From NCBI GenBank assembly GCA_031459615.1, contig JAVKIE010000001.1:66300-130299 (forward strand): a stretch of 64,000 nt of DNA, given 5' to 3'. Position numbers and translations under genes: made by a program. Within the stretch, counting starts at the first letter, position 1, and each line of letters begins with the position of its first letter. Positions 2,871 to 44,140 of this stretch are shown here, in pieces. A model generated the notes under the pieces. The model was given only the letters and a program-made list of their open reading frames with translations, did no database searches and had not been told where the DNA came from. The stretch comes from Candidatus Calidihabitans tengchongensis (GTDB lineage Bacteria > Sysuimicrobiota > Sysuimicrobiia > Sysuimicrobiales > Kaftiobacteriaceae).

Positions 2871-4451
2871 ATGGTCCGGGACGGCGCAGGGCCCCTTCCC
2901 GAGCACCCCGCGGAGGTGGACATCCCCCGCCGGTCCGGGGAGGCGGTGTGCGTTCCCCCGGCCGCGCGGCTGGTGGCCCTGGCGCGCGAGGTGGGCGCGG
3001 ATCTGGACCGCGCCGACGTGGTCCTGGGCGGGCTCCCCCTTCGGCGGCTGCGGGCGCAGGCGCGGGAGGAGATCCTGGCGGCGGCCGCCGCCTACACCCG
3101 CGGGCTGGGCCTGGACGCGGACATCCCGCCCGGCCGGGCGCCCCTGGTCGTCACCGGTCACCAGCCCTTCCTGTTCCACCCCGGCGTGTGGGTCAAATAC
3201 CTCCTGGCCGCCCGGCTGCAGGACCGCGGGGCCCTGGCGTTGGGCATCCCGGTGGACAGCGATGAAGCCGGCGAGGTCGGGGCCGACGCGCCGGCGTCCG
3301 GGCCGGCCGGCATGGTCCTGGCGCGGGAGGTGCTGGTGGCCGCGGAGCCGGAGGTGCCCTACGAGGCGCTGCCGGCCCCCTCGCCGGACCAGTGGGCGGC
3401 GTTCCTCGACCGCCTCCAGGCGCACCTGGAGGCGGTGCCCCTGGAGAGGGCGCAGGCCGCCTTGCGCCGATTCCGCGAGCTGACCGTGGATCTGCGCGCG
3501 GGCGACCTGGGCGCGTTCTTCACCGCGGCCCGCCACCGCTACGAAGGCCTGCGCTACCTGGAGGTCCCGGTCTCCATCCTCAGCCGCACCGACGCCTTCC
3601 GGCGGTACGCGCTTCACCTGCTGGGCGACGCGGACCGGTTTGCCGCGGTGTACAACCGCCTGCTGCAGGCCTACCGCGAGCGCCACGGCGTCCGCACGCG
3701 AGCCCAGCCGTTTCCGGACCTGGAGCGCGACGATCGGGGGGTGGAAGCGCCGTTCTGGCTGCTGCGCGCGGGCCGCCGCCTGCGGGTGTTCGTGCGGCGG
3801 CGGCGGGACCGCCTGGTCCTGGCGGCGGACGCGGACGTGGCCGAGCTGTCCCCCGGGGCGGGCCCGCAGGCCCTGGAGGGACTGGAGCTGCGTCCCCGGG
3901 CGCTGACCCTGACCCTGTTCACGCGGCTGGTGGTGGCCGATCTGTTCCTCCACGGGGTGGGCGGAGGGCGGTACGACCGGGTGACGGACGCCGTGATCGC
4001 CGACTACCTGGGCCTGGCACCTCCCGCCTACGCGGTGGCCACCGCCACCCTGCACCTGCCCCTGGCGGCCGACGACCTGCGCGCCCGGCGCCGGGAACTG
4101 CGCCAGCGCCTGATGCGCCTGCAGCACAACCCCGACCGGGTCCTGGACGATCCGACGCCCGAGCAGCGGGCGTTGATCGAGGAGAAGTGGTCGCTGGTGG
4201 CGTCGCTGTCCTCGGCGGCGCTCACCCGGCGTCAGCGACGCCAGATCACCCACCGGATCCGGGAGATCAATGCCGAGCTGTCCCGCGCTTTGGGCGAGCA
4301 GGTGGAGCGCCTGAGCCGCCAGCTGCGGGACCTGGACCGGCCCGCCACCGAGGCCGCGCTGGCGGCGGCGACCCACCGGGGCTATCCGTACTGCTACTTC
4401 CCGGTGGACGACGTCGCCGCCCTGGTGGACGGCCTGCTGTCCCGGCCGTAG
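2871..4451 (+). CDS. BshC-like (DUF2317) putative cysteine-adding ligase with C-terminal coiled coil
   Basis: 526 aa. The N-terminal region PLVVTGHQPFLFHPGVWVKYL resembles the conserved G-Q-Q/H-Q motif region of the BshC family as remembered. The C-terminal 120 aa (LRARRRELRQRLMRL...EQVERLSRQLRDL) is predicted coiled coil, like the BshC dimerisation domain. Assignment is from memory of the family, not a search. Confidence 0.35.
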   Translation: MVRDGAGPLPEHPAEVDIPRRSGEAVCVPPAARLVALAREVGADLDRADVVLGGLPLRRLRAQAREEILAAAAAYTRGLGLDADIPPGRAPLVVTGHQPFLFHPGVWVKYLLAARLQDRGALALGIPVDSDEAGEVGADAPASGPAGMVLAREVLVAAEPEVPYEALPAPSPDQWAAFLDRLQAHLEAVPLERAQAALRRFRELTVDLRAGDLGAFFTAARHRYEGLRYLEVPVSILSRTDAFRRYALHLLGDADRFAAVYNRLLQAYRERHGVRTRAQPFPDLERDDRGVEAPFWLLRAGRRLRVFVRRRRDRLVLAADADVAELSPGAGPQALEGLELRPRALTLTLFTRLVVADLFLHGVGGGRYDRVTDAVIADYLGLAPPAYAVATATLHLPLAADDLRARRRELRQRLMRLQHNPDRVLDDPTPEQRALIEEKWSLVASLSSAALTRRQRRQITHRIREINAELSRALGEQVERLSRQLRDLDRPATEAALAAATHRGYPYCYFPVDDVAALVDGLLSRP

Positions 4452-4656: not shown

Positions 4657-5109
4657 TCAGCGTGTGGGCTCCTGCGCGTTCCCGGATCTGCGCCGCATCG
4701 ACCGGCGGACGTACGCCGCTGCCAGCGCCGTCCCCGCCAGCAGGGCCGCTGCAGGCGTCAGCCACACCACCCACAGGAGGCCCCGCCGCGGAGGCTCCAG
4801 CAGGATCCACGGGCCGTAGCGGTCCACGAAGTAGGCCACGATCTGCTCCTCACTCTCTCCCCGGGCCAGCCTGTCCCGGATCAGGGCCCGCATCTGGGCG
4901 GCCAGCTCGGACGGCGAGTCGGCCACGCTCTCGTTCTGGCACACCGGGCACCGCAGCCGCGCCGCGATCGCCTGCGCCCGCGCGTCCAGATCCTGGGCTC
5001 GCGCCATCCCGGAGACGACGCTGCCCAGGAGGGCGGCGATCGCGAGCGTCGTCTTCGCCCGAGCCGCCAGACCCCCGCTCCCGCGGCCTGCGATGGTCAT
5101 GCCTGACAC
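4657..5109 (-). CDS. ccmH: cytochrome c-type biogenesis protein CcmH
   Basis: Signal-peptide-like N-terminus followed by the LRCPVCQNESV (LRCxxC) CcmH motif. Last gene of the ccm cluster. Confidence 0.7.
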   Translation of the reverse strand: MSGMTIAGRGSGGLAARAKTTLAIAALLGSVVSGMARAQDLDARAQAIAARLRCPVCQNESVADSPSELAAQMRALIRDRLARGESEEQIVAYFVDRYGPWILLEPPRRGLLWVVWLTPAAALLAGTALAAAYVRRSMRRRSGNAQEPTR

Positions 5110-5137
5110 CTTCCTCCACCACCCCCCGCCCGCACCA

Positions 5138-5683
5138 TCACCGATCGCCGGGCCGGCCGGTGCCCGGGGGGCGGTGGTCGGAGGCGGGGATCAGCGGCTC
5201 GATGCGCGGGGCCAGCAGGTCCTCGGTCACCGCCCCCGCGTGCTTGAAGACGATCCGTCCCTGCCGGTCGATCACGTAGGTTTCGGGCACGCCGACCACG
5301 CCGAAGTCGATGGCGATGGCCCCCGAGCGGTCCATCCCCACGGGAAACGTCTGCCCGAAGCGGCGCAGGAAGGCCCGGGCTGCGGCCTCGGTGTCCTGGA
5401 TGTTGATGCCCACGACCACCACGCCCCGGTCCCGATAGCGCTCCCACACGCGCTGCAGGTGCGGGGCTTCGTCGTAGCAGGCGGGGTAGCACCAGGATGC
5501 CCAGAAGTTGACCACCACCACCCGCCCGCGCAGGTTCTGGGAGCGCAGCAGGCCTCCGTCGAACAGCGGCAGGGTGAATGCCGGGGCCGGACGCCCGACC
5601 AGGGGGGACGGCAGCCGCCGGGGATCGCGGCGCAGCCCCGCCCCCAGCACCGCCAGCAGGCCCACCACGACGGCCAGCGCCAC
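5138..5683 (-). CDS. ccmG: thiol:disulfide oxidoreductase CcmG/DsbE-like (thioredoxin fold), atypical CxxxC motif
   Basis: The C-terminal 181 aa of the long ORF 5138..7681 have a TM anchor then a thioredoxin fold (VVVVNFWASWCYPACYDEAPHL...GVPETYVIDRQGRI). Start at GTG 5681-5683 is a guess and could be further upstream. The redox motif reads C-Y-P-A-C (CxxxC), not the canonical CxxC. Confidence 0.65.
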   Translation of the reverse strand: MALAVVVGLLAVLGAGLRRDPRRLPSPLVGRPAPAFTLPLFDGGLLRSQNLRGRVVVVNFWASWCYPACYDEAPHLQRVWERYRDRGVVVVGINIQDTEAAARAFLRRFGQTFPVGMDRSGAIAIDFGVVGVPETYVIDRQGRIVFKHAGAVTEDLLAPRIEPLIPASDHRPPGTGRPGDR

Positions 5684-5748
5684 CCACGGCCACCGGATCC
5701 GCCGGGTCGGGGGCGACCCCGCCGGCCGGAGGTGTTCGTCGGGGCGCC

Positions 5749-7698
5749 CTACGGGCGGCGCGGCGGCCACAGGGCCAGTCCTCCCCCGACGATCATGATG
5801 GCCCCGCCGGCCCAGATCCACGACACCAGCGGGCTGATCACCACCCGCAGGACCACCGTCTGCGCGCCCGGGTCGAATCCCAGCAGTACCACGTACAGGT
5901 CCTCCCGCCAGGTGGACCGCACCCCGGGCGTCGGGACGGGGGTCCGGGCGTGGCGGTAGAAGTTCTGGGACGGCCGCAGGACCGCCGCCGGCGCCTGATC
6001 GCGGGAGGCGGCCAGGGCCGTGCCGCCGTCGGCCACCGACACCGGGGCCCACACCACCAGGCGGTCCGGATACGTTCCCGCCCGCAGCTCGTCCACCCGC
6101 AGGGCGTACGGCCCCACGCGGATCACCTCGCCCACCCGCAGCGCGCGGTGCACCTCCAGGCGAGCAGCCTGGGAGCCTACAATGCCCGCCACCACCACCG
6201 CCATCCCCAGATGGACCACGTATCCGGCGTAGCGGTGCCGGTGGCGGAGGACCAGCTCGGCCATCGCCGCCGGAACCGGCCGTCCGCCCCGGTGCAGGGC
6301 CCGCACGCCGCGGGCCAGCTCGTCCAGCTGGGCCAGGGCCACGAACGCCACCGCCCCCACCGCCACGACGGCGACGGGCGCCCGCAACCCGGCGGCCGCC
6401 GCGGCGGAAGCGGCGACGGCGGCGAGGCCGCCGGTTCGCGCCAGGCGGCGCAGGTCTGCGGGGGACGACCGTCCCCAGCGCAGGACGGTGCCGGCGCCCA
6501 TCAGGGCCAGCAGCACCAGCCCCAGGGGGGTGATCGCGCGATTGAAAAACGGCGGCCCCACGGTGACCTTCTGCCCGGTGGCCACGTCCACCGCCAGCGG
6601 GAACACCGTGCCCACAAACACCGTCGCGGCCATCGCCAGCAGGAGCGCGTTGTTGAAGACCATCAGGGCGTCGCGGGATGCCACCGACGCCACGCTCCCG
6701 GCGTCCCGCACGTCCGGCACCCGCCAGGCCAGCGCGGCGAGCGTCCCCACGGTGACGGCCGCCAGGCCGGCGAGCAGCGCGGGCCCGATCGCCGACTGGG
6801 TGAAGGCGTGCACCGAGGCCAGCACGCCGCTGCGGGTGACGAACGTGCCGAACAGCGTCAGCCAGAACGTCGCCGCAGCCAGGACCACCGTCCAGGCCCG
6901 CAGCACTCCCCGCCGGACCTGGGCCATCGCCGAGTGCACCAGCGCGGTGGCCGTGAGCCACGGCAGCAGGGCGGCGTTCTCCACCGGATCCCACGCCCAG
7001 TAGCCTCCCCATCCCAGGACGTCGTAGGACCACCGGGCCCCCAGGACCAGCCCGGCGGTCAGCGCCGTCCACGCGCCCAGCGTCCAGGGCCGGCTGACGA
7101 CCACCCAGTCTTCGGCATCCCGGCCCGCCAGCAGGGAGCCGAGGGCAAACGCATAGGGTACCGCCATCCCCACAAACCCCAGGTAGAGCAGGGGAGGGTG
7201 CAGGATCATCAGCGGGTGGTTCTGCAGCAGGGGGTTCAGTCCGGTGCCGTCGGCCGGTGGCGTCGGCACCCGCGCAAAGGGATCGGCCGGCCCCACCAGC
7301 AGGAGCAGGAAGAACGCGCACAGGCCCAGCAGCACGCCCACCGTCCCGCGCCACAGGCGGGGCGCTGGCGCGCGGGTGCGGACGGCCACTCCTGCGGTGA
7401 GGGCGGCCAGCAGCCAGGTCCACAGCAGCAGGGACCCTTCCAGCGCCCCCCACAGCGCCGCCACCCGGAACGCCAGCGGGGTGGTGCGGTTGGTGGTGGC
7501 GGCCACGTAGCGGATGCTGAAGTCCCCGCCGATCAGGGCCCACTCCAGGAGCGCCACCGCACCGGTGACCGCCACCGCCATGCCCGCCGCCAGCGGGACG
7601 ACCCGCCGCCCGCCCCGCGGCCGGGCGCACGCCGCCAGGCCGGCCACCGCACAGGCCGCCGCGGCCACCAGGCTGATCCATCCTCCCAGCGCGATCAC
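5749..7698 (-). CDS. ccmF: cytochrome c heme lyase subunit CcmF
   Basis: 649-aa polytopic membrane protein with the WGGYWAWDPVEN WWD-domain signature of CcmF/NrfE. Its ATG overlaps the ccmE stop (ATGA). Confidence 0.85.
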   Translation of the reverse strand: MIALGGWISLVAAAACAVAGLAACARPRGGRRVVPLAAGMAVAVTGAVALLEWALIGGDFSIRYVAATTNRTTPLAFRVAALWGALEGSLLLWTWLLAALTAGVAVRTRAPAPRLWRGTVGVLLGLCAFFLLLLVGPADPFARVPTPPADGTGLNPLLQNHPLMILHPPLLYLGFVGMAVPYAFALGSLLAGRDAEDWVVVSRPWTLGAWTALTAGLVLGARWSYDVLGWGGYWAWDPVENAALLPWLTATALVHSAMAQVRRGVLRAWTVVLAAATFWLTLFGTFVTRSGVLASVHAFTQSAIGPALLAGLAAVTVGTLAALAWRVPDVRDAGSVASVASRDALMVFNNALLLAMAATVFVGTVFPLAVDVATGQKVTVGPPFFNRAITPLGLVLLALMGAGTVLRWGRSSPADLRRLARTGGLAAVAASAAAAAGLRAPVAVVAVGAVAFVALAQLDELARGVRALHRGGRPVPAAMAELVLRHRHRYAGYVVHLGMAVVVAGIVGSQAARLEVHRALRVGEVIRVGPYALRVDELRAGTYPDRLVVWAPVSVADGGTALAASRDQAPAAVLRPSQNFYRHARTPVPTPGVRSTWREDLYVVLLGFDPGAQTVVLRVVISPLVSWIWAGGAIMIVGGGLALWPPRRP

Positions 7699-8084
7699 GG
7701 AGACGGGGGAGCGTACTGCTCCGAGTGCTTGACGATCACCGAGCGGGCCACGAAGACGCCGTCGGACCCGTAGATGCCCTCCACGACCGCCCCCTGGCCT
7801 TCGGTGAACAGGTCGGGGGGCACGCCCCGGTACAGGACCGGGACCGCGGCGCGGCCGTCGGTCAGCACGAAGCGCAGCTCCAGGGTTCGGGGATCAAACG
7901 ATCGCGACCCCGGCTGCACCTGGCCGCCCAGCCGCAGGGGCCGGCCCACCGCGTCCGGGCCCCGGTCCAGCAGCTCGCCGGGGGTGATGTAGTAGACCAC
8001 CGCCCCGCGGAGCCCTCCGATGACGAGGTAGACCAGGGCGCCGACCACCACCGCCGCCGCCAGCATCAGGCGCGCGCGCCTCAC
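7695..8084 (-). CDS. ccmE: heme chaperone CcmE
   Basis: TM anchor plus OB-fold region (VVYYITPGEL...RFVLTDG...VPVLYRGVPPDLF...GSDGVFVARSVIVKHSEQY). Chosen start is GTG 8082-8084 with GGAGGAG 5 nt upstream. The ORF track extends to an upstream ATG at 8192. Confidence 0.8.
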   Translation of the reverse strand: MRRARLMLAAAVVVGALVYLVIGGLRGAVVYYITPGELLDRGPDAVGRPLRLGGQVQPGSRSFDPRTLELRFVLTDGRAAVPVLYRGVPPDLFTEGQGAVVEGIYGSDGVFVARSVIVKHSEQYAPPSP

Positions 8085-8206
8085 CGCGTCTCCTCCCCCC
8101 TGCCGGGGCGGGTGCGGCGCAGCCGCCGGCGCAGGTGGACCACGTAGAGCACCACCGCCGCCGCCACCACGCCGTAGGCCAGGGCGATCCACACCGCCGG
8201 CGTCAT
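8081..8206 (-). CDS. ccmD: heme exporter protein CcmD (small membrane protein)
   Basis: 41 aa: MTPAVWIALAYGVVAAAVVLYVVHLRRRLRRTRPG, single TM plus a basic tail typical of CcmD. Its ATG overlaps the ccmC stop (ATGA) and its stop overlaps the ccmE GTG (GTGA). Confidence 0.5.
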   Translation of the reverse strand: MTPAVWIALAYGVVAAAVVLYVVHLRRRLRRTRPGRGEETR

Positions 8207-8856
8207 CCGGCCTCCTCGGACTCTTCCCGGCGCGCCACCCGCACGCGCAGGAGCAGCAGGTAGGCGAACAGGACGGTGAAGGCCAGCAGGCTCAGCAGCA
8301 GCGTCAGGAGCATCGGCGGCGCCAGGGCGACCTCTCCACGGGTGATGGACGGAGGCTGGTGCAGGGTCCGGAACCAGACCACCGAGTAGTGGATGAGGGG
8401 GACGTCTGCCGCCCCGAGGACGCCCACCACCGCGCCCAGCCGGGCTCCCCGCTGCGGATCGTCGGCCAGCGCCCGCACGAGCAGGGCGCTGCAGTAGATC
8501 AGGAACAGGACGGCCGTGGTGACCAGGCGCGCATCCCACGTCCACCACACCCCCCACACGGGGCGCCCCCAGATCGAGCCGGTGGCCAGCGTGAGGCCCG
8601 TGAACAGGACCGCCAGCTCGGTGGCGCTGCGGGTCAGGGCGTCATAGCGCGCCTCACGCCTCCACAGGTACAGGACCCCGCCGACCAGGGTGACGCCCAC
8701 CGCCAGGTACGCCACCCAGGCCGCGGGCACATGGACGTACATGATGCGGACGTAGTCGCCCTGAAAGGCGTCCGGCGGCGACGCCACCAGGCCCGCATAG
8801 GCCGCGGCGCCCAGCAGCAACACGGCCGCACCGCCCAGGACGGCAGACACCGTCAT
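8203..8856 (-). CDS. ccmC: heme exporter protein CcmC
   Basis: 217 aa with the WGRPVWGVWWTWDARL WWD motif and conserved His. ATGA overlap with the ccmB stop. Confidence 0.85.
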   Translation of the reverse strand: MTVSAVLGGAAVLLLGAAAYAGLVASPPDAFQGDYVRIMYVHVPAAWVAYLAVGVTLVGGVLYLWRREARYDALTRSATELAVLFTGLTLATGSIWGRPVWGVWWTWDARLVTTAVLFLIYCSALLVRALADDPQRGARLGAVVGVLGAADVPLIHYSVVWFRTLHQPPSITRGEVALAPPMLLTLLLSLLAFTVLFAYLLLLRVRVARREESEEAG

Positions 8857-9512
8857 ACCTCGTCCATCACCGCCTCAAACAGGATCGGACAGGCCAGCAC
8901 GAACACCGCGACGCTGCCGGCCAGCACCCCCGGCCACACGCCTGCCGGCGCGCCCGCCAGGACGGCCTCGGTGAGCCGGATGCAGGCCAGCACGGGCGGC
9001 AGGGCCAGGGGCAGCATCAGCAGGGGCGCCAGCAGCTCCCGCCCCCGCACGTGCAGCAGCAGTCCGGCCACCAGCGTTCCCAGGGCCGCCAGGGCGGCCA
9101 CGCCGGCCCCGCCCACCGCCGCCAGCTGCGGCAGGCGCGCGGCCACGGGGAGTCCGAACAGGAATGCAGCCAGGATCAGCAGGACGGCCACCACACCCCC
9201 CAGGAGGACCGCGAGCGCGGCGGCTTTGCCCCAGTACAGGTGCTCGCGCCGGCCCGGGTACAGCAGCAGCGCCTCCAGCGCCTGCTGGTCAGCCTCGGCC
9301 TGGGTGATCCGCGGGATGCCCACCGCCGCCGCGCACGCTGCCGACACCCACACCACGGCGGCGGCGCGGGCGGGTTCGGGCCCCAGCGCCACGCCCAGGA
9401 CCAGCACCAGCAGCAGGCCCGCCAGGAGCATGGTGAGGGCGACGGCTCGTCCTCGCCACTCCGCGCGCAGGTCCTTGCGGGCCACCGCCGCCGCCCGCGT
9501 CCACCCGCTCAC
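8853..9512 (-). CDS. ccmB: heme exporter ABC permease CcmB
   Basis: 219-aa six-TM protein (ARKDLRAEWR...). GTG start at 9510-9512 overlaps the ccmA stop (GTGA). The ORF track has a spurious 5' extension to 10004. Confidence 0.8.
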   Translation of the reverse strand: MSGWTRAAAVARKDLRAEWRGRAVALTMLLAGLLLVLVLGVALGPEPARAAAVVWVSAACAAAVGIPRITQAEADQQALEALLLYPGRREHLYWGKAAALAVLLGGVVAVLLILAAFLFGLPVAARLPQLAAVGGAGVAALAALGTLVAGLLLHVRGRELLAPLLMLPLALPPVLACIRLTEAVLAGAPAGVWPGVLAGSVAVFVLACPILFEAVMDEV

Positions 9513-10201
9513 GGGCGGCCTCCCTGCGCGGCGAACGCCGGCGCACCGGGGGCCAGGGATCGGAGCGCGGCGGGCTCCCCGGCCTGCAGCACCAGTTCCG
9601 CATCCGCCAGCGCCCGGGCGCGGTCGCGGTCGTGGGTGGCGATCACGGCACTGCCTCCCCGGGCGACGACCTCCGCCACCATGGCGGCGACCAGCGCGGC
9701 CCCCTCGGGATCCAGCCCGGCGTAGGGCTCGTCCAGCAGCAGCAGCCGCGGCTGGCCCAACCAGACCCGCGCCAGCGCCAGCCGGCGCTTCATGCCCTGG
9801 CTGAAGGTCCGGACGAGCCGGTCGGCGGCGGCACCCAGACCCACCCGGCGCAGCCAGGCGTCCACGTCCGTCTGCGGGCGCCCCCACAGGGCGGCTGCGA
9901 ACTCCAGATTCTCGCGGGCCGTGAGCAGCTCGTAACCGCCGAAGGCGGCGCCCACCAGCCCCACCATCGGGCGCACCCGGTCCGCCTGCCTGACCAGGTC
10001 GCATCCGAAGACGGTGCCCCCGCCCGCCGTGGGTCGCAGGGCGGTGGCCAGCAGGCGCAGCAGCGTCGTCTTGCCCGACCCGTTGGGACCGGAGACCAGC
10101 AGCACCCGGCCGGCAGGCACGGTCAGGGTGATGCGGCGCACGGCCCAGACCGGGCCGAACCGCCGTCCCAGGTTCACCGCGCGCACGGCCGGGACGTCCA
10201 C
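9509..10201 (-). CDS. ccmA: heme exporter ABC ATPase CcmA
   Basis: Walker A GPNGSGKTTLLR, signature FSQGMKRRLALA and Walker B LLLLDEP. Start is GTG 10199-10201. The ORF track extends spuriously to 11008 on the opposite strand of the cyt c gene. Confidence 0.8.
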   Translation of the reverse strand: MDVPAVRAVNLGRRFGPVWAVRRITLTVPAGRVLLVSGPNGSGKTTLLRLLATALRPTAGGGTVFGCDLVRQADRVRPMVGLVGAAFGGYELLTARENLEFAAALWGRPQTDVDAWLRRVGLGAAADRLVRTFSQGMKRRLALARVWLGQPRLLLLDEPYAGLDPEGAALVAAMVAEVVARGGSAVIATHDRDRARALADAELVLQAGEPAALRSLAPGAPAFAAQGGRP

Positions 10202-10366: not shown

Positions 10367-11269
10367 ATGGGGGGTCGGATCGTCGCCGTCGCCATCGTCG
10401 TGGCCGGCGCTCTTTTTTTGGCCGGCTGCCAGCCCGCGGTGGACATCTCCCGGGCGGGCGTGGAGGCGGCGCGGGAGCTGCCCCCGGCGCCGCCGGATCG
10501 ACCCCTGCTGCCCGTGGACGCCCGGGGCCAGCCCATCCGTCCCTCGGCCGAGGTGGGCGCCCAGGTGTTCAGCCGGGCGCGGTGCGACGTCTGCCACGGC
10601 CCTCAGGGACGCGGCGACGGGCCCGCGGCGGCGGGTCTGCGGGCGGAGCAGAAGACGCTGCTGCACGACCTGGCCCGCCTGGTGGGGATCCGCCTGCAGC
10701 CCGAGCGGCTGCCCAGCCGCCCGGCCAACTTCCACAACGTGGTGGCGATGCGCCTGAACAGCCCGTTCAGCATGTACGAGACCGTCACCCGGGGGCGCCC
10801 GCACACGGCGATGCCGGCGTTCGGCCCGCGCCCGGCCTACGGCGCCACGTCCTTCGGCGTCCGGCTGACCGACGCGGAGCGCTGGCACGTGATCTTCTTC
10901 GAGTGGGCGTTCGCCACCACGCCCGAGGAGGTGGCGCGGGGACGCGAGCTGTACGAGACGCGGGCCATCGAGGTGGGCGGGCGCGCCCTGACCTGCGCGT
11001 CCTGCCACGGGGTGCGGGGGGACGGCCGGGGGCCGGAGGGCGTGCGGCTGAGCCAGCGGCTGTGGACGTGGGCCCGGGGACAGGGCCCGGGGATCTTCAC
11101 CGACTTCAACCTGATGGCCCAGCGCAAGCCCAGCGACCTGTTCCAGGCGGTCGTGGACGGACGGGGAGAGATGCCCGCCTACCGGGGGAAGCTCACCGAG
11201 GACGAGATCTGGGCCCTCGTGAACTACATCTATACGTTCGTCTACGACTATCCGGGGCTGCGCCGGTAG
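10367..11269 (+). CDS. diheme c-type cytochrome, lipoprotein
   Basis: Lipobox signal MGGRIVAVAIVVAGALFLAGC. Two CxxCH heme-binding sites (CDVCH, CASCH). ATG at 10367 sits in-frame inside the larger ORF 9632..11269. Confidence 0.75.
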   Translation: MGGRIVAVAIVVAGALFLAGCQPAVDISRAGVEAARELPPAPPDRPLLPVDARGQPIRPSAEVGAQVFSRARCDVCHGPQGRGDGPAAAGLRAEQKTLLHDLARLVGIRLQPERLPSRPANFHNVVAMRLNSPFSMYETVTRGRPHTAMPAFGPRPAYGATSFGVRLTDAERWHVIFFEWAFATTPEEVARGRELYETRAIEVGGRALTCASCHGVRGDGRGPEGVRLSQRLWTWARGQGPGIFTDFNLMAQRKPSDLFQAVVDGRGEMPAYRGKLTEDEIWALVNYIYTFVYDYPGLRR

Positions 11270-11368: not shown

Positions 11369-12061
11369 ATGGAGAACCCGCCGACGCGGATGATGGAGCG
11401 GCGCCGGTTCCTGCGCCTGGCGACCACCGTTCCGGCGCTGGCCGCCCTGGCCGGGCTGGTGTCGCCGCTGCTGCGGCTGCTCAAGCCCAACGTGGACAAG
11501 TTCCGCATCTACGCCCCCACGGCGCACGACACCCCCCAGGGCGAGGCCATCGTGGCGGCCACCCTGTCGGAGGTCGCCCGCCCCTGGGACTTCAAGTACT
11601 TCGTGTTCACCCAGAAGTATCCCCAGTACACGCCCCAGGGATTCAAAGCCGCCGTCGTGCCGGGGGTGGTGGTCCGCCTGCCGCGGAAGATCCGTCTGTA
11701 CGATCCGGCCACCGGCCGCGGCCCTCTGGCGTGGGCCCGGGACATCGGCAAGACCCCCCGGGTCACCGACAGCGACCTGGTGGTGTTTTCCCGGATCTGC
11801 CCGCACCTGGGCTGCATCTTCAACTACGTCCCCGACTACCGGGAGATCACCGCCGGCTACGGCGGCTACGTGCCGCCCCCCGAGCGCCGGCACGCCCTGA
11901 TGGGGTGTCCCTGCCACCTGAGCATCTACGACCCGGCCGACCCGCAGGTCCCGGGGAGGGTCCTCTCGGGTCCGGCGCCGCGCCCCCCGCGCACGTTTCT
12001 GTTTGAGGTGCGGGGCGGGGACATCGTCATCACCGACGTGGAGCCGGGGGGAATCGCCTGA
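11369..12061 (+). CDS. Rieske [2Fe-2S] iron-sulfur protein of a cytochrome bc-type complex (Tat signal)
   Basis: Twin-arginine motif ERRRFLRLA. Rieske boxes CPHLGC and CPCHLS, with disulfide cysteines. Confidence 0.85.
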   Translation: MENPPTRMMERRRFLRLATTVPALAALAGLVSPLLRLLKPNVDKFRIYAPTAHDTPQGEAIVAATLSEVARPWDFKYFVFTQKYPQYTPQGFKAAVVPGVVVRLPRKIRLYDPATGRGPLAWARDIGKTPRVTDSDLVVFSRICPHLGCIFNYVPDYREITAGYGGYVPPPERRHALMGCPCHLSIYDPADPQVPGRVLSGPAPRPPRTFLFEVRGGDIVITDVEPGGIA

Positions 12062-12070
12062 GGTCTGACC

Positions 12071-13231
12071 ATGTGGGAGACGGTGCGCGACTGGCTGCGA
12101 GAGCGCCGGGAGAAACTGGACCTGTTCGACGAGACCCTGGTGGCCCGGCAGGGCAATCCCTTCTACCTCCTGGGGCCCATGCTGTACTACTTCTGGCTCA
12201 TCACCGTCGTCACCGGGGTCGTCCTGATGCTGTGGTACGAGCCCACCACCACGGGCGCCTACAGCTCCATCGAGCGCATTCAGAACGAGATCGGCCGCAC
12301 CGGCCTGACCGTGTTCGGGCGCCCGGTGGTCCTGGGCGGGCTGATCCGCGGCCTGCACAAGTACGGCGCCGACGCCCTCATCACCGTCATCTTCCTGCGC
12401 CTGTACCGCATGTACTTCCTGGGAGAGTACAAGAAGCCGGGCGAGCTGTCGTGGATGCTGGCCTTTGCCGGATTGATCCTGGCCATGATCTCCGGGATCA
12501 CCGGCTACCTGCTCATCTGGAACCAGCGGGCCTTCTGGGCCGCCAAGGTAGTCCTGACGGTCCCGGTGTACTTCGACGAGATCCCGGTCCTGGGCCAGTT
12601 GAAGTTCGGCTCGATGATCGCCTACCTGTTCCTGGGCGGGCCGGCCATCGGCCAGGCCACCATCACCCGGTTTTACGCCATCCACTTCGGCATCTCCCTG
12701 GTCCTGCTGGTCCTGGTGGAGGTGCTGTTCTTCCGCACCCGCCGCAAGCGCATCAACATGTCGCTGACGCCCCTGGCGGTGTTCCTGGTCATGCTGGTGG
12801 TCATCTCCCTCCTCCTGCCAGCCGAAAGCGGCCGGCGGGCCGATCCCACGCGGACGCCCCTGCCCATCCTGTCGGACTGGTACTTCCTGGCCCTGTACCA
12901 GTACGTGAAGTATACGCCGCCGTTGTGGGCGGGGCTGGGCCCCGGGCTGCTCATCGGCTTCGGCATGCTGGTGCCCTTTCTGGACCGCAGCCGGGGCCGC
13001 CGGCCCCTGGAGCGGCCGTTCTTCTTCGTGGTGGGCGTGCTGGCGCTCACCTACTTCCTGGTGTTCACGGCGCTGATCCTGTTCAACATCGCGGTGATCG
13101 AGCGGGATCCGTTCATCATCATGCTGGTGACGCTGGCGGTTCTGAGCCTGGGCCTGGCGTGGGAGATCCGGTACCGCCGCCGCCGGGCGGCGGCCCCCGC
13201 TGCGCCAGCCCGGGCGCCCGCCCGCGGGTAG
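12071..13231 (+). CDS. cytochrome b-like membrane subunit (fused b6 + subunit IV length) retaining only the heme bL histidine pair
   Basis: N-terminus and Qo-region align with cytochrome b (GYLLIWNQRAFWAAKVV..., TRFYAIHFG, SDWY in place of PEWY). In the helix B motif LHKYGADALITVIFLR the second His is Arg. In the helix D motif IHFGISLVLLVLVEVL the second His is absent. Only 2 His occur in the first 300 aa. Confidence 0.8.
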   Translation: MWETVRDWLRERREKLDLFDETLVARQGNPFYLLGPMLYYFWLITVVTGVVLMLWYEPTTTGAYSSIERIQNEIGRTGLTVFGRPVVLGGLIRGLHKYGADALITVIFLRLYRMYFLGEYKKPGELSWMLAFAGLILAMISGITGYLLIWNQRAFWAAKVVLTVPVYFDEIPVLGQLKFGSMIAYLFLGGPAIGQATITRFYAIHFGISLVLLVLVEVLFFRTRRKRINMSLTPLAVFLVMLVVISLLLPAESGRRADPTRTPLPILSDWYFLALYQYVKYTPPLWAGLGPGLLIGFGMLVPFLDRSRGRRPLERPFFFVVGVLALTYFLVFTALILFNIAVIERDPFIIMLVTLAVLSLGLAWEIRYRRRRAAAPAAPARAPARG

Positions 13232-13235
13232 GCCG

Positions 13236-13481
13236 ATGCGGCTGCTGTCCATCGCGGTGGCGTTCGTGGCGGCCCTGGCGGCCCTGTCGGCGGGGTGGGC
13301 GGCGGTGCAGGCGGCGTGGGCCGCCCCCACCCCGGGCGCCCTGGCCCGGGTGGCGGGGTACGCGCTGGTCTTCGCGGCGGCGTTTCTGTACCTGGGGTTC
13401 TGGGTGTACGCGGCGGACCGCGCGGCGGGCAGGGTCCGCCGGCGCATCGGCCTGTATGAGCGCTTCCTGGCCGGCCGGTAG
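13236..13481 (+). CDS. small hydrophobic membrane protein (81 aa)
   Basis: ORF starts 5 nt after the cyt b-like stop. Two predicted TM helices. No recognisable motif. Confidence 0.35.
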   Translation: MRLLSIAVAFVAALAALSAGWAAVQAAWAAPTPGALARVAGYALVFAAAFLYLGFWVYAADRAAGRVRRRIGLYERFLAGR

Positions 13482-13540: not shown

Positions 13541-13741
13541 ATGCGGAACGCGCATCTGACCGGCATCATCGCCCTCAGCGCCGTGGCCGTGGCGGCCGCG
13601 GCCGGCATCGTCTACGGGGAAGCCACCGACCGGTGGTACCTGGGCGGCGCCCTGGTGGGCGTGCTGCTGATCGCGTACGCGGGCATCGTGCTGCTGCTGC
13701 GTCGGATGGGCCTGATCGGGCCCCGGAGGGCTGAGCGGTGA
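13541..13741 (+). CDS. small membrane protein (66 aa)
   Basis: Two TM helices. Its stop overlaps the GTG of the downstream cyt b-ferredoxin gene (GTGA), suggesting co-translation within the same module. Confidence 0.35.
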   Translation: MRNAHLTGIIALSAVAVAAAAGIVYGEATDRWYLGGALVGVLLIAYAGIVLLLRRMGLIGPRRAER

Positions 13742-14931
13742 GCGTCGCGGACGTGCGGCCCAGCCGCTACGGGCGGGTGATGACCGCGCTGTTGCGGGCC
13801 ACCCTGCGGGTGGACACGTGGATCCACCGGATCGTGCCCACCGACTACAACCCGCTGTACTACACCGGCGGCCTGGCCAACCTCTTCCTGCTGGTCCTGG
13901 TCCTCTCGGGTATCTTCCTGTTCTTCTACTACGAGGCCAGCCTGGAGGGCGCGTTCGCCTCGGTGCGCTACCTGACCCAGGCGGTCCCCTACGGGGGGCT
14001 GCTGCGGGGGGTGCACCGCTACGCCGCCGACGCCTTCGTGGTGGCCATCCTGCTGCACCTGTTCCGCAACTGGTTCACCGACCGCTACCTGTTCTCCCGG
14101 GATAACCCGTGGATCTCGGGGATGATCCTGCTGCTGTTCGGGGGCTTCATCGGGGTCACCGGCTACCAGCTGGTGTGGGATGAGCGGGCCCAGGTCCTGA
14201 CCGCGCTGTTCGCGCGCCTGCTGCGCAGCATCCCCGGGGTGGGCGGCGCGCTGGCCGAGCTGTTCTTGGGGGGGCGCGGGGTCAGCGATGCCACCCTGGT
14301 GCGGATGCTGTTCCTGCACATCGGGCCCGCCTCGGCCCTGTACCTGCTGCTGTGGTGGCACTACCTGCGGCTGCGCCACCCCAAGATCTGGCCGCCGGCG
14401 ATGTGGGTGCTGTTCTGCGTGGGGCTGGTCTTCCTGCTGGCGGGCCTGATTCCCGTGGGCGCCGAGGCCATCCCGCCGGCGGCGCCGGCCGCGCGGCCCA
14501 CCCGGTTCGCCCTGGATGTCTTCTTCCTGTGGCCGTTCTGGCTGCTGAACTGGCTGCCGCCCCGCGGGGTCGTGGCCCTGGGGGTGGTCCTGTTCACCGC
14601 CGGCCTGGCCATCCCGTACCTCAGCCGGCGAGAGCACCCCGCGGCCATGGGGGTGCGCCACGCCGGCGTGGCCCAGGTGATCGACGGCAACTGCACCGGA
14701 TGCGAGCTGTGCTACTACGACTGTCCCTACAACGCCATCGTCATGGTGCCGTCTCCCGCCCCGGGGCTGACCAAGGCGGCGGCGAACCGCACCCTGCTGG
14801 CGGTGGTGGTGGAGTCCCGGTGCGTGGAATGCGGGATCTGCATCGGCGCGTGCCCCTTTGAGGCGCTGGAGCTGCCCCGGCTCCTGGAGCGGGACGTGCT
14901 GGCGCAGGTGGCGGAGGCGGTGTCGGCATGA
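13738..14931 (+). CDS. cytochrome b (both bis-His heme sites intact) fused to a C-terminal 2x[4Fe-4S] ferredoxin domain
   Basis: Helix B motif VHRYAADAFVVAILLH and helix D motif LHIGPASALYLLLWWH both keep the H-x13-H spacing. C-terminal CTGCELCYYDCP and CVECGICIGACP are two classic 4Fe-4S ferredoxin motifs. Confidence 0.75.
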   Translation: MSVADVRPSRYGRVMTALLRATLRVDTWIHRIVPTDYNPLYYTGGLANLFLLVLVLSGIFLFFYYEASLEGAFASVRYLTQAVPYGGLLRGVHRYAADAFVVAILLHLFRNWFTDRYLFSRDNPWISGMILLLFGGFIGVTGYQLVWDERAQVLTALFARLLRSIPGVGGALAELFLGGRGVSDATLVRMLFLHIGPASALYLLLWWHYLRLRHPKIWPPAMWVLFCVGLVFLLAGLIPVGAEAIPPAAPAARPTRFALDVFFLWPFWLLNWLPPRGVVALGVVLFTAGLAIPYLSRREHPAAMGVRHAGVAQVIDGNCTGCELCYYDCPYNAIVMVPSPAPGLTKAAANRTLLAVVVESRCVECGICIGACPFEALELPRLLERDVLAQVAEAVSA

Positions 14932-15377
14932 GCGAGCCCCGGATCGTGGGGTTTGTGTGCGACTGGAGCGTGGACCTCCGGCCCCTGGTGGACGGCGGCC
15001 GGCTGCGGGATCTGCCCGGGGTGCGGATCATCCGCGTCCCCTGCTCGGGTTTCGTGCGCCCCGCGTGGCTGGAGGAGGCCCTCGTCCGGGGCGCCGCCGG
15101 CGCCTTCGTCACCGGGTGTCCGTACGGGGACTGCCTGAACCGCGAGGGCAACTTCCTGATGCGGGATCGGATCGACCAGCTGCAGCGCCGGCTGCAGCGC
15201 CGCAAGATCGACCCCGCCCGGGTGGCCATGCTGGCCCACGGGCTGCACGACGGGCGGGCGTTCCTGGAGGCGGTGCGCGCCTTCGCGGACCGGGTGGCCG
15301 CGCTGCCGGCTCCGGCCCGGCCGGGCCGCCCGGCGGTGGCGCAACCGGCCGGCGCGCCGGAGGGGGAGGGGACGTGA
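14928..15377 (+). CDS. MvhD/FlpD-like protein (methyl-viologen-reducing hydrogenase delta subunit family, [2Fe-2S])
   Basis: IVGFVCDWSVD...RIIRVPCSGFV...GAFVTGCPYGDCLNREGN matches the FlpD/MvhD cysteine pattern (C-x-W-C/S...PCSG...GC..G.C). ATGA overlap with the upstream cyt b-Fd fusion. Confidence 0.6.
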   Translation: MSEPRIVGFVCDWSVDLRPLVDGGRLRDLPGVRIIRVPCSGFVRPAWLEEALVRGAAGAFVTGCPYGDCLNREGNFLMRDRIDQLQRRLQRRKIDPARVAMLAHGLHDGRAFLEAVRAFADRVAALPAPARPGRPAVAQPAGAPEGEGT

Positions 15378-15481
15378 GCCGGGCGCCGCTGCGGGTGCAC
15401 CTGCTGTACCTGTTGTTCTACCTGTTCTGGTTCCTGCTGCTGACGTTCATCGCGTCCTTCGGGCTGGTGGCCGAGGCGTAG
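15374..15481 (+). CDS. 35-aa single-TM peptide, translationally coupled to the MvhD-like gene
   Basis: GTG overlaps the MvhD-like TGA (GTGA). Sequence VSRAPLRVHLLYLLFYLFWFLLLTFIASFGLVAEA is reminiscent of the small PetG/L/N-type subunits of Rieske/cyt b complexes. Confidence 0.3.
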   Translation: MSRAPLRVHLLYLLFYLFWFLLLTFIASFGLVAEA

Positions 15482-15598: not shown

Positions 15599-15976
15599 AT
15601 GGGCAGGAGGATGGGGCGGTGGGCGGTGCTGGCCGGCGTGGCGGTGATCGTCGCGGGCTGCGGGGGCGGTGGTCCCCGGGGCGGGCAGCCGGCGGCGCCG
15701 GCGGAGGGAGCCATCACCGTCACCGAGACCGAGTGGGCCATCCGGTTTCCCGGCACCCCCCTCAAGGCCGGGAAGGCCACCCTGGTCATCAGGAACGAGG
15801 GCACCATCGAGCACAACTTCGTCATCCAGGGGCTGGGCGTGGAAGTGGACGCCATCCCCCCCGGCGGGTCCCGGCAGGTGACCGTGGACCTGCGGCCGGG
15901 GACGTATGAGGTGGTCTGCAACCTCCCCGGCCACCTGGAGGCCGGCATGAAGACGACCATCACCGTCGCTCCCTGA
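15599..15976 (+). CDS. type-1 copper (cupredoxin/plastocyanin-like) lipoprotein
   Basis: Lipobox VIVAGCGG. Copper ligand pattern H(NF)...C(NLPG)H...M. AAGGAGGG RBS 5 nt before ATG 15599. The ORF track starts at 15524. Confidence 0.75.
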   Translation: MGRRMGRWAVLAGVAVIVAGCGGGGPRGGQPAAPAEGAITVTETEWAIRFPGTPLKAGKATLVIRNEGTIEHNFVIQGLGVEVDAIPPGGSRQVTVDLRPGTYEVVCNLPGHLEAGMKTTITVAP

Positions 15977-42688: not shown

Positions 42689-43513
42689 TCAGTCGGTCAG
42701 GGCCGGCAGGGACAGCGCGGCGGCGTGGACGGCGGGAGAGTACAGGCGCGTGGACACCCCTGCCAGACGGCCGGCGATCACATCGGGCGGGACGGCGCGG
42801 GGGTCGGGCCGCCGGCTGCCATAGGTGAACGTCCACAGCACCCCGGGATAGGACGGGACCGGGACCCAGTAGGTGCCCACCACCGGGAACACCTCCCGCA
42901 GGTGCCGGCGGACCATGTCGGTGACAGGCCGCTGGTACAGCAGCGACCCGCTCTGGGCCACCAGGATTCCCTGGGGGGTCAGCAGGCGGGCGCAGCCGGC
43001 GTAGAACTGGGGGGAAAACAGGGCCAGCCCAGGCCCCTTGGGGTCGGGAGCGTCCACCAGAATGACGTCAAACGACCCGCCGGCCCGGGCGACGTAGTTC
43101 ACCCCGTCGTCGATGACCACCTCCGCCCGCGGATCGCTGAACGCCTCCCCGCCGATGGACGGCAGGTGGCGCCGGCACATCTCGACCACCACGGCGTCGA
43201 TCTCCACCAGGGTGACGTGCTCCACCGGGTGCTTGAGGACCTCTTTTAGGGTGCCCCCGTCGCCGCCCCCGATGATGAGGACCCGGCGGGGAGACGGGTG
43301 GGTGACCAGCGGGAGGTGGGCCAGCATCTCGTGGTAGGTGTGCTCGTCCCGCTCGGTGGTCTGCACGGCGTCATCCAGGATCAGCATGCGGCCGAACAGA
43401 GGGCTGGACGCGATCAGGATCCTCTGGTAGGGGGAACGCACCGCGCACAGGACGTCGGTGATCTGTACGGCTTGAGCCACGCCGGGCCCGACCAGGTCCA
43501 CCAGCCACTCCAT
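42689..43513 (-). CDS. speE: spermidine synthase
   Basis: VLIIGGGDGGTLKEV and VDAPDP motifs. Chosen start is MEWLVD, and the ORF track extends 23 codons upstream. Confidence 0.85.
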   Translation of the reverse strand: MEWLVDLVGPGVAQAVQITDVLCAVRSPYQRILIASSPLFGRMLILDDAVQTTERDEHTYHEMLAHLPLVTHPSPRRVLIIGGGDGGTLKEVLKHPVEHVTLVEIDAVVVEMCRRHLPSIGGEAFSDPRAEVVIDDGVNYVARAGGSFDVILVDAPDPKGPGLALFSPQFYAGCARLLTPQGILVAQSGSLLYQRPVTDMVRRHLREVFPVVGTYWVPVPSYPGVLWTFTYGSRRPDPRAVPPDVIAGRLAGVSTRLYSPAVHAAALSLPALTD

Positions 43514-43529
43514 GGCGACGATCTCCGGA

Positions 43530-44009
43530 TCACGGGGTGAGGCCGTTCGCCGACGGCCAGAACACCACCGCGGCCACGACACACCCGATGCGCTGCACCA
43601 CGTGCTCGGCGGAGGCCACCCGGATGTCGTCCACCGGCAGGTCCCGGACGGCCATGGCTTCTTCCACCATGCGCCGCACCACGGCCTCGGCGTTTTCGGC
43701 GGTCCCGCTGTGCTGGAACTCCATGATGACCCCGTAGCTGTCCCGGGAAAACCCCAGTCCGACGGCGGCGGCGATGCGCTCCCCGGGCGTGTGGCTGGTG
43801 CGCCGGGCGTACACCGCCGGGGCGAGGATGCCCGGAGGAAACCGGGGGACCGGGATCACCGTCACCCCCGCCGGCAGGATGCTGGAGACCCGCAGGAAGT
43901 TCATGTTGGCGATGCCGGCGTCCATCAGCGCCCGGTCAAACGCGGTCAGCTCCGTCAGCCCTTCGCCCCGTCCGGCGACGACCGAGACGGCCTGGGGCCG
44001 GACCCACAT
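43530..44009 (-). CDS. pdaD: pyruvoyl-dependent arginine decarboxylase (PdaD family)
   Basis: 159 aa. NFLRVSSILP contains the Ser that self-cleaves to form pyruvoyl in PdaD. GAGGAGG RBS. It is the C-terminal part of the long ORF 43530..45314. Confidence 0.65.
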   Translation of the reverse strand: MWVRPQAVSVVAGRGEGLTELTAFDRALMDAGIANMNFLRVSSILPAGVTVIPVPRFPPGILAPAVYARRTSHTPGERIAAAVGLGFSRDSYGVIMEFQHSGTAENAEAVVRRMVEEAMAVRDLPVDDIRVASAEHVVQRIGCVVAAVVFWPSANGLTP

Positions 44010-44140
44010 GCAGGAGTCACCTCCTCTCGCGGCCAAGTGGGGCACAACGTTGCGGAGTATTCCATCTGCGGGCGGGCGGTCCTCCCGCGCCGGCGGGGCG
44101 CGTGCGGTGGGGCGCCGACCCGGCGTGAACGGAGCGGACG

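Follow-up and report, generated by a model that had tools for sequence, protein, structure and literature searches.

The locus described here raises the question of why a protein of the FlpD/MvhD family, an established electron connector between modules (PMC12350162), should be encoded within a Rieske/cytochrome b operon, and what kind of complex its product would join. The operon lies within a 64,000-nucleotide stretch of the genome of Candidatus Calidihabitans tengchongensis (GenBank assembly GCA_031459615.1, contig JAVKIE010000001.1, positions 66,300 to 130,299 of the forward strand), referred to below as the window; all coordinates are positions within this window, and related loci were inspected with flanks of ±7-8 kb. 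It is one compact plus-strand operon of nine genes, encoding a cytochrome c, a Rieske protein, a cytochrome b (b1), two small transmembrane (TM) subunits (TM81 and TM66), a second cytochrome b fused to a ferredoxin domain (b2-Fd), the FlpD protein, a short membrane peptide and a cupredoxin. A first-pass annotation of this DNA had singled out the FlpD gene as unexpected in such surroundings, and this judgement holds: no description of a Rieske/b1/b2-Fd/MvhD operon, or of a monohaem cytochrome b bearing a quinol-oxidising (Qo) site, was found in the literature searched, and both papers on the phylum (one being PMC11604079) leave the operon without comment. The main new finding was absent from that annotation, namely that b1 has lost the ligands of the inner haem, bH. 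We propose, with about an even chance of being right, that the operon encodes a complex III with an asymmetric b1/b2 core, in which a quinone (Q) cycle would run through the heterodimer and an iron-sulphur (FeS) arm would serve mainly for electron entry.

The best matches in the PDB for both b1 and b2 were b6 chains (E ~1e-31 to 1e-32). The 386 residues of b1 include only two His, H96 and H205, which align with the two outer-haem (bp/bL) ligands of b6, His86 and His187; the equivalents of these two were retained in 42/42 b1 orthologues. The position of b6 His100, which ligates the inner haem (bn/bH), is occupied by Arg in all 42 orthologues (Arg110 in the window b1, by alignment to b6 of 1VF5), and among the best 120 b1 homologues it is R in 117 and K in 2 (119/120). 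The position of b6 His202 holds F, L, Y or M in 41 of the 42 orthologues, and a hydrophobic residue in the window b1. Direct alignment of b1 with b2, which are only 28% identical, placed R opposite H and L/F opposite H; the four haem-ligating His expected of a bc1/b6f cytochrome b are thus complete in b2 and incomplete in b1. Conserved His residues that might act as substitute bH ligands were sought in TM81 and TM66, and none was found. The Qo loop within the subunit-IV-like C-terminal domain of b1 (...PLPILSDWYFLALYQ) is nearly invariant, with SDWY present in 120/120 homologues. With both inner-haem ligands gone, b1 would be able to bind only the outer haem bL. Scores against the model for ExtP, the cytochrome b of selenite/tellurite operons (NF040969), were 129.5 bits for b2 and 121.6 bits for b1, well short of the cut-off of 290.

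The genes of the operon, all on the plus strand, are as follows (lengths in amino acids, aa; ORF, open reading frame).

10367-11269, plus strand: dihaem cytochrome c lipoprotein, 300 aa, the operon's gene 1; lipobox LFLAGC, two CxxCH motifs (CDVCH and CASCH), PF13442 and PF00034.
11369-12061, plus strand: divergent Rieske [2Fe-2S] protein, 230 aa; cluster boxes CPHLGC (144) and CPCH (180), twin-arginine translocation (Tat)-type N-terminus RRRFLR.
12071-13231, plus strand: cytochrome b1, 386 aa, of fused b6 plus subunit-IV type; PF00033 and PF00032, SDWY, two His.
13236-13481, plus strand: TM81, 81-aa two-helix membrane subunit; C-terminal motif YAAxRAAGRVRRRIGLYE, position kept in all loci.
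13541-13741, plus strand: TM66, 66-aa two-helix membrane subunit; stop overlaps the b2 start, position conserved.
13738-14931, plus strand: cytochrome b2-ferredoxin fusion, 397 aa; PF00033 and Fer4 families, four His, C-terminal 2x[4Fe-4S].
14928-15377, plus strand: FlpD/MvhD-like [2Fe-2S]-type subunit, 149 aa; PF02662, four Cys.
15374-15481, plus strand: peptide ORF, 35 codons (GTG 15374, TAG 15479-15481), single membrane helix; supported by conservation and by the ratio of nonsynonymous to synonymous polymorphism (pN/pS).
15599-15976, plus strand: cupredoxin lipoprotein, 125 aa; PF13473 and PF00127, lipobox, type-1 copper pattern H72...C107-x4-H112-x4-M.

The window has a G+C content of 73%, and genuine genes were distinguished by the G+C of their third codon positions (GC3 ~0.9-0.98). 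The dihaem cytochrome c is probably the electron acceptor of the Rieske protein, and the cupredoxin is a probable periplasmic electron carrier towards oxidases; the cupredoxin gene follows the peptide ORF in most of the related loci that reach that far, the entry being blank in several. The Rieske protein matched its hidden Markov models (HMMs) weakly and below cut-off (PF00355, 17.6 bits; TIGR01416, 43 bits), and its two cluster boxes are separated by ~30 residues; its gene was upstream of b1 in every related locus reaching that far. In Candidatus Sysuimicrobium calidum (locus L048, ~6340-6780) TM81 and TM66 form one fused ORF, which supports their being subunits of the same complex.

Cytochrome b2 consists of a b6-like four-helix dihaem core, two further helices and the C-terminal 2x[4Fe-4S] domain, the latter with two canonical CxxCxxCxxxCP motifs, CTGCELCYYDCP and CVECGICIGACP. 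All four haem His were present in 52/52 orthologues. The stretch equivalent to the Qo loop is not conserved in b2. A stretch at its cytoplasmic (N) side, WWHYLRLRHPKIWPP, is highly conserved. The Cys that binds haem cn (b6 Cys35) occurs in neither b1 nor b2 in the orthologue alignments.

The FlpD protein was assigned to the FlpD/MvhD family by the first-pass annotation, which named a PF02662 search as the test, and the match was strong (E 3.9e-26; 91.9 bits vs a gathering score of 22.3; profile positions 1-122 of 123). A family profile built from 18 members also matched six solved MvhD-type chains of the Mvh-Hdr and Fdh-Hdr complexes (E 3e-23 to 4e-14; best 5ODC_D, E 3.1e-23). The protein has four Cys in total (11, 39, 64 and 69), invariant in the 18 diverse members and aligned with Cys of 5ODC_D (xCxW, CSG, GCxxGDC); where canonical MvhD reads CCNWC...MCSG...GCHLGDC, the present family reads VCDWS...PCSG...GCPYGDC, and the change from CCNWC to VCDWS removes two of the six canonical Cys. 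The four that remain should suffice to ligate one predicted [2Fe-2S] cluster. The translational coupling noticed earlier was found on both sides: the FlpD ATG overlaps the TGA of the 397-aa cytochrome b-ferredoxin ORF as ATGA, and the FlpD TGA overlaps the peptide GTG as GTGA. Proteins identical to this FlpD occur in two NCBI metagenome-assembled genomes (MAGs) and in several sequencing runs, where most gene callers also called the 35-aa ORF.

The ferredoxin domain of b2 and the FlpD protein matched consecutive stretches of the HdrA2 model NF040770 (positions 571-641 and 647-771, respectively; 34-76 bits vs a cut-off of 1100), so that the pair reproduces the C-terminal electron-input tail of HdrA2 minus the flavoprotein. 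A full-length HdrA2 match including the flavoprotein part was not obtained, only the C-terminal ~200 positions of the model being aligned.

We examined fusions of these parts in other phyla by an exhaustive HMMER search with b2-Fd, which gave 243 cluster representatives at E < 1e-30; the domain counts that follow cover the best 150 of these, with MvhD domains detected by an HMM built from the FlpD family alignment. An MvhD domain was present in the same polypeptide as cytochrome b-Fd in 115/150 representatives, and in 79 of these 115 a hydrophobic helix lies C-terminal to MvhD. Such fusions argue strongly for a physical connection between b2-Fd and MvhD in the complex encoded in the window. 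The fused proteins reached no NCBIfam family at cut-off, matching C-terminal positions of HdrA2 as did the window pair, and are annotated merely as "hydrogenase iron-sulfur subunit" or "4Fe-4S binding protein" in MAGs labelled Thermodesulfobacteriota or Acidimicrobiia.

The ORF overlapping the end of FlpD encodes the peptide MSRAPLRVHLLYLLFYLFWFLLLTFIASFGLVAEA. Its frame has a GC3 of 0.95, and ~40 of 48 species-level genome loci have a homologous ORF after FlpD, as the first-pass annotation had asked of a genuine gene. The overlap of peptide start with FlpD stop recurs across the loci (GTGA in 22, ATGA in 19, TTGA in 1), and a Shine-Dalgarno-like purine run precedes the ORF in 37/42 loci. Across 34 loci, the final 28 codons gave a pN/pS of 0.34, and variation by codon position was 0.355 at the third, 0.197 at the first and 0.084 at the second. 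The peptide is a real, conserved gene. The variable C-terminal tail of FlpD retains an "EGE"/"GG"-rich ending (15350-15373 in the window and the equivalent positions in related loci); these "EGE"-like codons are probably conserved because the purine run GGAGGGGGAGGGG doubles as the Shine-Dalgarno sequence of the peptide ORF.

The peptide consensus is a basic N-terminus followed by YLLFYLxWFLLLTFIASFGL[IV]AE[AT], with an acidic C-terminus; its N-terminus is predicted to be cytoplasmic. The likeness to PetG, PetL and PetN drawn earlier stands as an analogy, both being one hydrophobic helix; family membership does not, as no Pfam or NCBIfam profile (PetG/L/N included) matched at E <= 0.01, and PetG, PetL, PetM and PetN were all ruled out in this way. 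Judged by sequence, the true relatives of the peptide are the ORFs that follow FlpD in other lineages and the C-terminal helix of long cytochromes b1. In more distant lineages longer post-FlpD ORFs end in ...VAMFGLIAE(F) (loci L064 and L065), and L067 has a small ORF of 45 aa at this place, known by position and size only. The peptide motif forms the C-terminus of b1 in L056 and in 11 of 15 long (at least 460 aa) b1 homologues, and no separate ORF is found there. The topology, basic end in and acidic end out, agrees across all three arrangements (short ORF, longer ORF, fusion to b1). The long b1 proteins with a fused FGLIAE-type helix form a clade of ~490-585 aa proteins from MAGs labelled Armatimonadetes, Chloroflexi or unclassified, and are as follows.

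L056 4571-6064; P0292, P0294, P0295, P0300, P0304, P0306-P0308, P0310, P0312, P0350: long b1 with the peptide motif, having a C-terminal TM helix and FGLIAE-type motif.

The order Rieske, b1, two small TM genes, b2-Fd, FlpD was identical in all ~48 species-level loci. The locus records are MAGs labelled Armatimonadota, "Bacillati bacterium ANGP1", Candidatus Fervidifonticultor, Sysuimicrobium and Thermofontivivens, labels that correspond to phylum CSP1-3/Sysuimicrobiota (PMC11604079). In the gene table of that study, K00412 (cytochrome b) has two copies in 44/45 MAGs of the phylum, and none of the other complex III entries in KEGG Orthology (KO; Rieske, cytochrome c1, other cytochrome b) is found, with aa3-type and cbb3-type oxidases present; K00412 transcripts appear in 10/12 metatranscriptome columns. 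The operon is thus a transcribed, phylum-wide core operon, not peculiar to one genome, and going by the published table it appears to encode the only bc-type complex of these bacteria. Since the Rieske protein falls below Pfam and NCBIfam cut-offs and KO tables show only the two K00412 copies, automated reconstructions would report an incomplete complex III. The operon also occurs outside the phylum, and divergent versions of it (39-50% identity) lie directly 3' of the cbb3 oxidase genes CcoN, CcoO and FixS in L056, L064, L065, L066 and L067. Next after the cbb3-linked FlpD gene in L066 (11101-14264) come genes for a copper P-type ATPase and a protein resembling DsbD_2/CcdA, and L064 (15953-17275) has nearby a gene for cytochrome bd subunit I that includes a cytochrome c-like domain.

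Direct observation covers the features of the sequences and how well they are conserved, the order and co-inheritance of the genes, and the fusion of parts in other lineages; the following scheme is what we infer from it. A b1 with haem bL only could not discharge its Qo electron unless another cofactor were in reach, and, the bL-bL contact being the only close one between subunits in bc1/b6f, the simplest reading is a b1/b2 heterodimer. This heterodimer would be obligate, with b1 carrying the quinol-oxidising site beside the Rieske protein, and low-potential electrons would pass from Qo(b1) to bL(b1), across the dimer interface to bL(b2), and on to bH(b2) at the cytoplasmic side. A bL-bL bridge can carry catalytic electron flow and support growth in engineered cross-inactivated bc1 (PMC4152375, PMC4330944, PMC7908018). 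FlpD has neither a signal peptide nor a TM helix, and the C-terminus of the sixth helix of b2 should face the N side by homology to b6 plus subunit IV, so that all three FeS clusters would be cytoplasmic and beside bH(b2); the 2x[4Fe-4S] of b2 and the [2Fe-2S] of MvhD would then form a three-cluster arm next to bH(b2), with MvhD distal and offering a docking surface for a redox partner. The peptide would be a membrane helix, N-terminus in and C-terminus out, packed against b1 and b2.

As the complex is apparently the only bc-type enzyme supplying several cytochrome c oxidases, our view is that it would still reduce quinone at an N-side site of b2, which would give a Q cycle via the heterodimer. 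The main task of the FeS arm would be to deliver electrons from a donor in the cytoplasm to bH and the quinone site, in analogy with ferredoxin-driven cyclic flow into b6f; ferredoxin input at the N side of b6f has been proposed (PMC5600118). This direction fits the stand-alone fusions that carry periplasmic cytochrome c domains, where thermodynamics permit flow only from the cytoplasm to the outside. The direction of electron flow through the arm is the least certain step of the scheme. A more far-reaching version is put forward tentatively: the operon might represent a natural obligate-heterodimer complex III, in which all low-potential electrons from a single Qo site would be forced over the bL-bL bridge to b2, whose inner haem would be wired by three FeS clusters to the cytoplasm, and which might work either as a quinone-pool-independent "cytoplasmic donor:cytochrome c" proton-motive loop (a hard-wired ferredoxin-type cyclic flow) or in quinol-based bifurcation to a cytoplasmic acceptor; the same module in fused form might serve haem-copper oxidases in several other phyla.

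Several points weigh against the asymmetric complex III with an entry arm. The heterodimer follows from a single argument, that b1 alone would lack a sink for its bL electron. The Qi residues of bc1 are not recognisable in b2, in which only the WWHYLRLRHPKIWPP stretch is conserved at the N side. His is present at the second bH-ligand position in 14/120 b1 homologues, all of the outgroup, so an unusual haem at that position is possible in those lineages. The stand-alone fusions that lack Rieske and b1 imply that the b2 module can work without b1. Finally, no candidate cytoplasmic redox partner is encoded near the operon in any locus examined.

The absence of recognisable Qi residues and of the haem-cn Cys from b2 could also be read to mean that b2 has no quinone-reducing site and that there is no Q cycle, every second Qo electron leaving through bL, bL', bH', the 2x[4Fe-4S] domain and MvhD to a cytoplasmic acceptor. 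Loss of bH from b1 would agree with this, as it would drive all low-potential electrons to the cytochrome b that bears the FeS arm, and so would the ferredoxin-MvhD tandem, which is the C-terminal electron module of HdrA2; a hypothesis that the anammox Rieske/cytochrome b (R/b) complexes possibly make NAD(P)H gives a precedent (PMC12954380). We consider such an exit unlikely. In bacteria whose apparently sole bc-type complex stands beside aa3 and cbb3 oxidases, it would send half of the respiratory electrons back to the cytoplasm and forfeit the gain of the Q cycle, and an acceptor enzyme is not encoded in any locus examined. For a menaquinol-level donor, moreover, moving electrons against the membrane potential from bH to ferredoxin-type clusters is uphill unless the cluster potentials are unusually high.

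The genes around the fused proteins suggest another arrangement, in which b2-Fd, MvhD and the peptide would form their own, homodimeric transmembrane wire from the cytoplasm to a periplasmic cytochrome c, cupredoxin or oxidase-assembly factors, as the stand-alone fusions probably do, and would share no more than a transcript with Rieske and b1. All four fused-gene loci examined adjoin COX1, and three also SCO1/SenC; genes for PCuAC, a small cytochrome c and a UbiA-family protein (probably haem O synthase) each occur in some of the four, and Rieske or b1 genes were found near none of them. Examples of the fused family are the following.

L060-L063; P0132, P0139, P0144/P0282; also P0156: fused cytochrome b-Fd-MvhD proteins, adjoining COX1, SCO1/SenC, PCuAC and haem O synthase.

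A periplasmic CxxCH domain forms the C-terminus of 13/150 representatives, and one fused representative has SCO1 at its N-terminus. In the operon itself, the cupredoxin gene directly 3' of the peptide ORF and the cytochrome c maturation (Ccm) genes upstream would suit an outward wire as well. We nonetheless hold a separate conduit in the window to be quite improbable: b1 without bH cannot discharge haem bL alone, and b1 was always together with b2 in the loci examined; in a whole clade the peptide motif is joined to b1, not to b2 or MvhD; and the window peptide has no periplasmic domain. The fused proteins constitute a large uncharacterised family in their own right, with cytochrome b, 2x[4Fe-4S], MvhD, a TM helix and a periplasmic beta-rich domain of ~150 aa, with or without a cytochrome c domain, in one polypeptide; this family may serve to carry electrons from cytoplasm to periplasm for oxidases or for the handling of copper.

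That the FlpD protein keeps its classical role, as delta subunit of a group 3c Mvh-type hydrogenase or partner of an HdrA encoded elsewhere, and sits in the operon by chance or co-regulation, is very improbable: PF02662 membership, the likeness to solved MvhD chains and the mvhA encoded and transcribed in some families of the phylum would allow it, but mvhA is found in only ~6/45 MAGs (PMC11604079 table) vs the operon in essentially all, the 4-nt overlaps with both neighbour genes are conserved, the domain is covalently joined to cytochrome b-Fd in most homologues, and two canonical Cys are missing. The link to Mvh/HdrA bifurcation implied by the first-pass annotation likewise gains no support from the gene neighbourhood, as hdrA and mvhAG were absent from the gene tables of the related loci examined and from the window ORFs scanned with Pfam (~30 further ORFs).

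Compared with known systems, the proposed asymmetric complex resembles b6f and menaquinol:cytochrome c reductase in its Rieske protein with CxHxGC and CxCH boxes and a Tat signal, its b6-like four-helix cytochrome b, its subunit-IV-like domain with an xDWY Qo loop, its c-type cytochrome and its small single-helix subunits. Unlike bc1 and b6f, it has two non-identical cytochromes b in one operon, a b1 without haem-bH ligands, no haem-cn Cys, and a b2 with a 2x[4Fe-4S] domain and an MvhD protein as its partner. The complex is therefore of the Rieske/cytochrome b type in general appearance, but departs from it in lacking the four-haem-ligand feature in the Qo-bearing cytochrome b, and it adds subunits for which the literature searched holds no report.

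QmoABC of sulfate reducers also links the quinone pool to the cytoplasm, QmoC being a membrane dihaem cytochrome b with an FeS domain and QmoB having an MvhD-like domain; it differs in that the cytochrome b of QmoC is of NarI/HdrE type and not b6 type, in its HdrA-like flavoproteins, and in having no Rieske protein and no Qo site. The anammox R/b complexes, set apart here by description and not by sequence, have an FAD/NAD(P)-binding protein and multihaem cytochromes as extra subunits, not MvhD, and we know of no report of a monohaem or second cytochrome b in them. What R/b-2 and R/b-3 share with the present complex is a Rieske/cytochrome b core with extra redox subunits, for which transfer of a low-potential electron to NAD(P)H has been proposed (PMC12954380, PMC9325076).

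Known bc complexes are homodimers, every monomer being equipped with both a Qo and a Qi site (PMC7908018). The closer likeness is to engineered cross-inactivated or hybrid-fusion bc1 (Rhodobacter B-B fusions; PMC4152375, PMC4330944), with Qo on one cytochrome b, the working N side on the other, and a bL-bL crossing between them; those are laboratory constructs that keep all four haems, whereas here the asymmetry would be natural and phylum-wide, with haem loss and an FeS arm gained. With the MvhD of Mvh-Hdr, Fdh-Hdr and Elp-Hdr and the tail of HdrA2 the FlpD protein shares the PF02662 fold family, the order ferredoxin then MvhD (HdrA2 ~570-771), and, as common ground with Hdr systems, the role of a one-electron connector between modules (PMC12350162). 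Unlike in the Mvh/Hdr systems, its partner would be a membrane cytochrome b, not a flavoprotein or hydrogenase; there is no HdrA part, and four of the six Cys are kept.

The nearest published observations are cytochrome b subfamilies K and H and clade G' of Dibrova et al. 2017 (PMC5600118). Subfamily K, of cyanobacteria, has the helix-2 haem His replaced by Glu or Gln and an obscure number of haems; subfamily H comprises large proteins with cytochrome b domains and of unknown function; and clade G' within subfamily G comprises long cytochrome b genes in large operons of unknown function. In b1 the replacement is Arg or Lys; the subfamily K proteins are, in addition, short and stand-alone. An association of subfamilies K or H or clade G' with FeS or MvhD proteins is not mentioned in that text, and b1 and b2 are set beside them by description only.

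Electron exchange between monomers in bc1 and b6f, and the reason for the dimer itself, are long-standing questions that have so far been approached chiefly through engineered asymmetric enzymes; a Qo-bearing cytochrome b that naturally lacks its inner haem would make transfer between monomers obligatory and would provide a clean system for study. An FeS arm covalently attached to the N side of a b6-type cytochrome would likewise offer a ready-made model of how ferredoxin electrons might enter b6f, a matter under debate. The complex is apparently the sole complex III of a phylum widespread in soil, the subsurface and hot springs, where it is transcribed in situ, and metabolic reconstructions that list two cytochrome b genes and no Rieske protein miss the nature of the enzyme. 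The scope of MvhD would be widened from the cytoplasmic bifurcating complexes of anaerobes to membrane-bound aerobic respiration, and a large uncharacterised family of fused cytochrome b-Fd-MvhD proteins beside oxidase genes is thereby defined.

On the 3' side of the operon are genes for polyprenyl synthase, TatA/TatC, RadC, MreBCD, PBP2, RNase G, Obg and further housekeeping functions, and the genes identified by Pfam scans of ~30 further window ORFs all belonged to Ccm system I, the cell envelope, translation or amino-acid transport. No Pfam match was obtained for two long ORFs of good GC3, at 2871-4451 (plus strand, 526 aa) and 43512-45821 (plus strand, 769 aa). The 526-aa ORF comes after a PIG-L gene, as does a 514-aa ORF without Pfam match 3' of the PIG-L gene in L007, a likeness of size and position only. 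A complete system I cytochrome c maturation cluster (CcmA, CcmB, CcmC-like, CcmE, CcmF, CcmH) occupies 4657-10201 on the minus strand, divergent from the operon; in L009 and L010 a CcmF-family gene lies directly upstream of the operon on the same strand.

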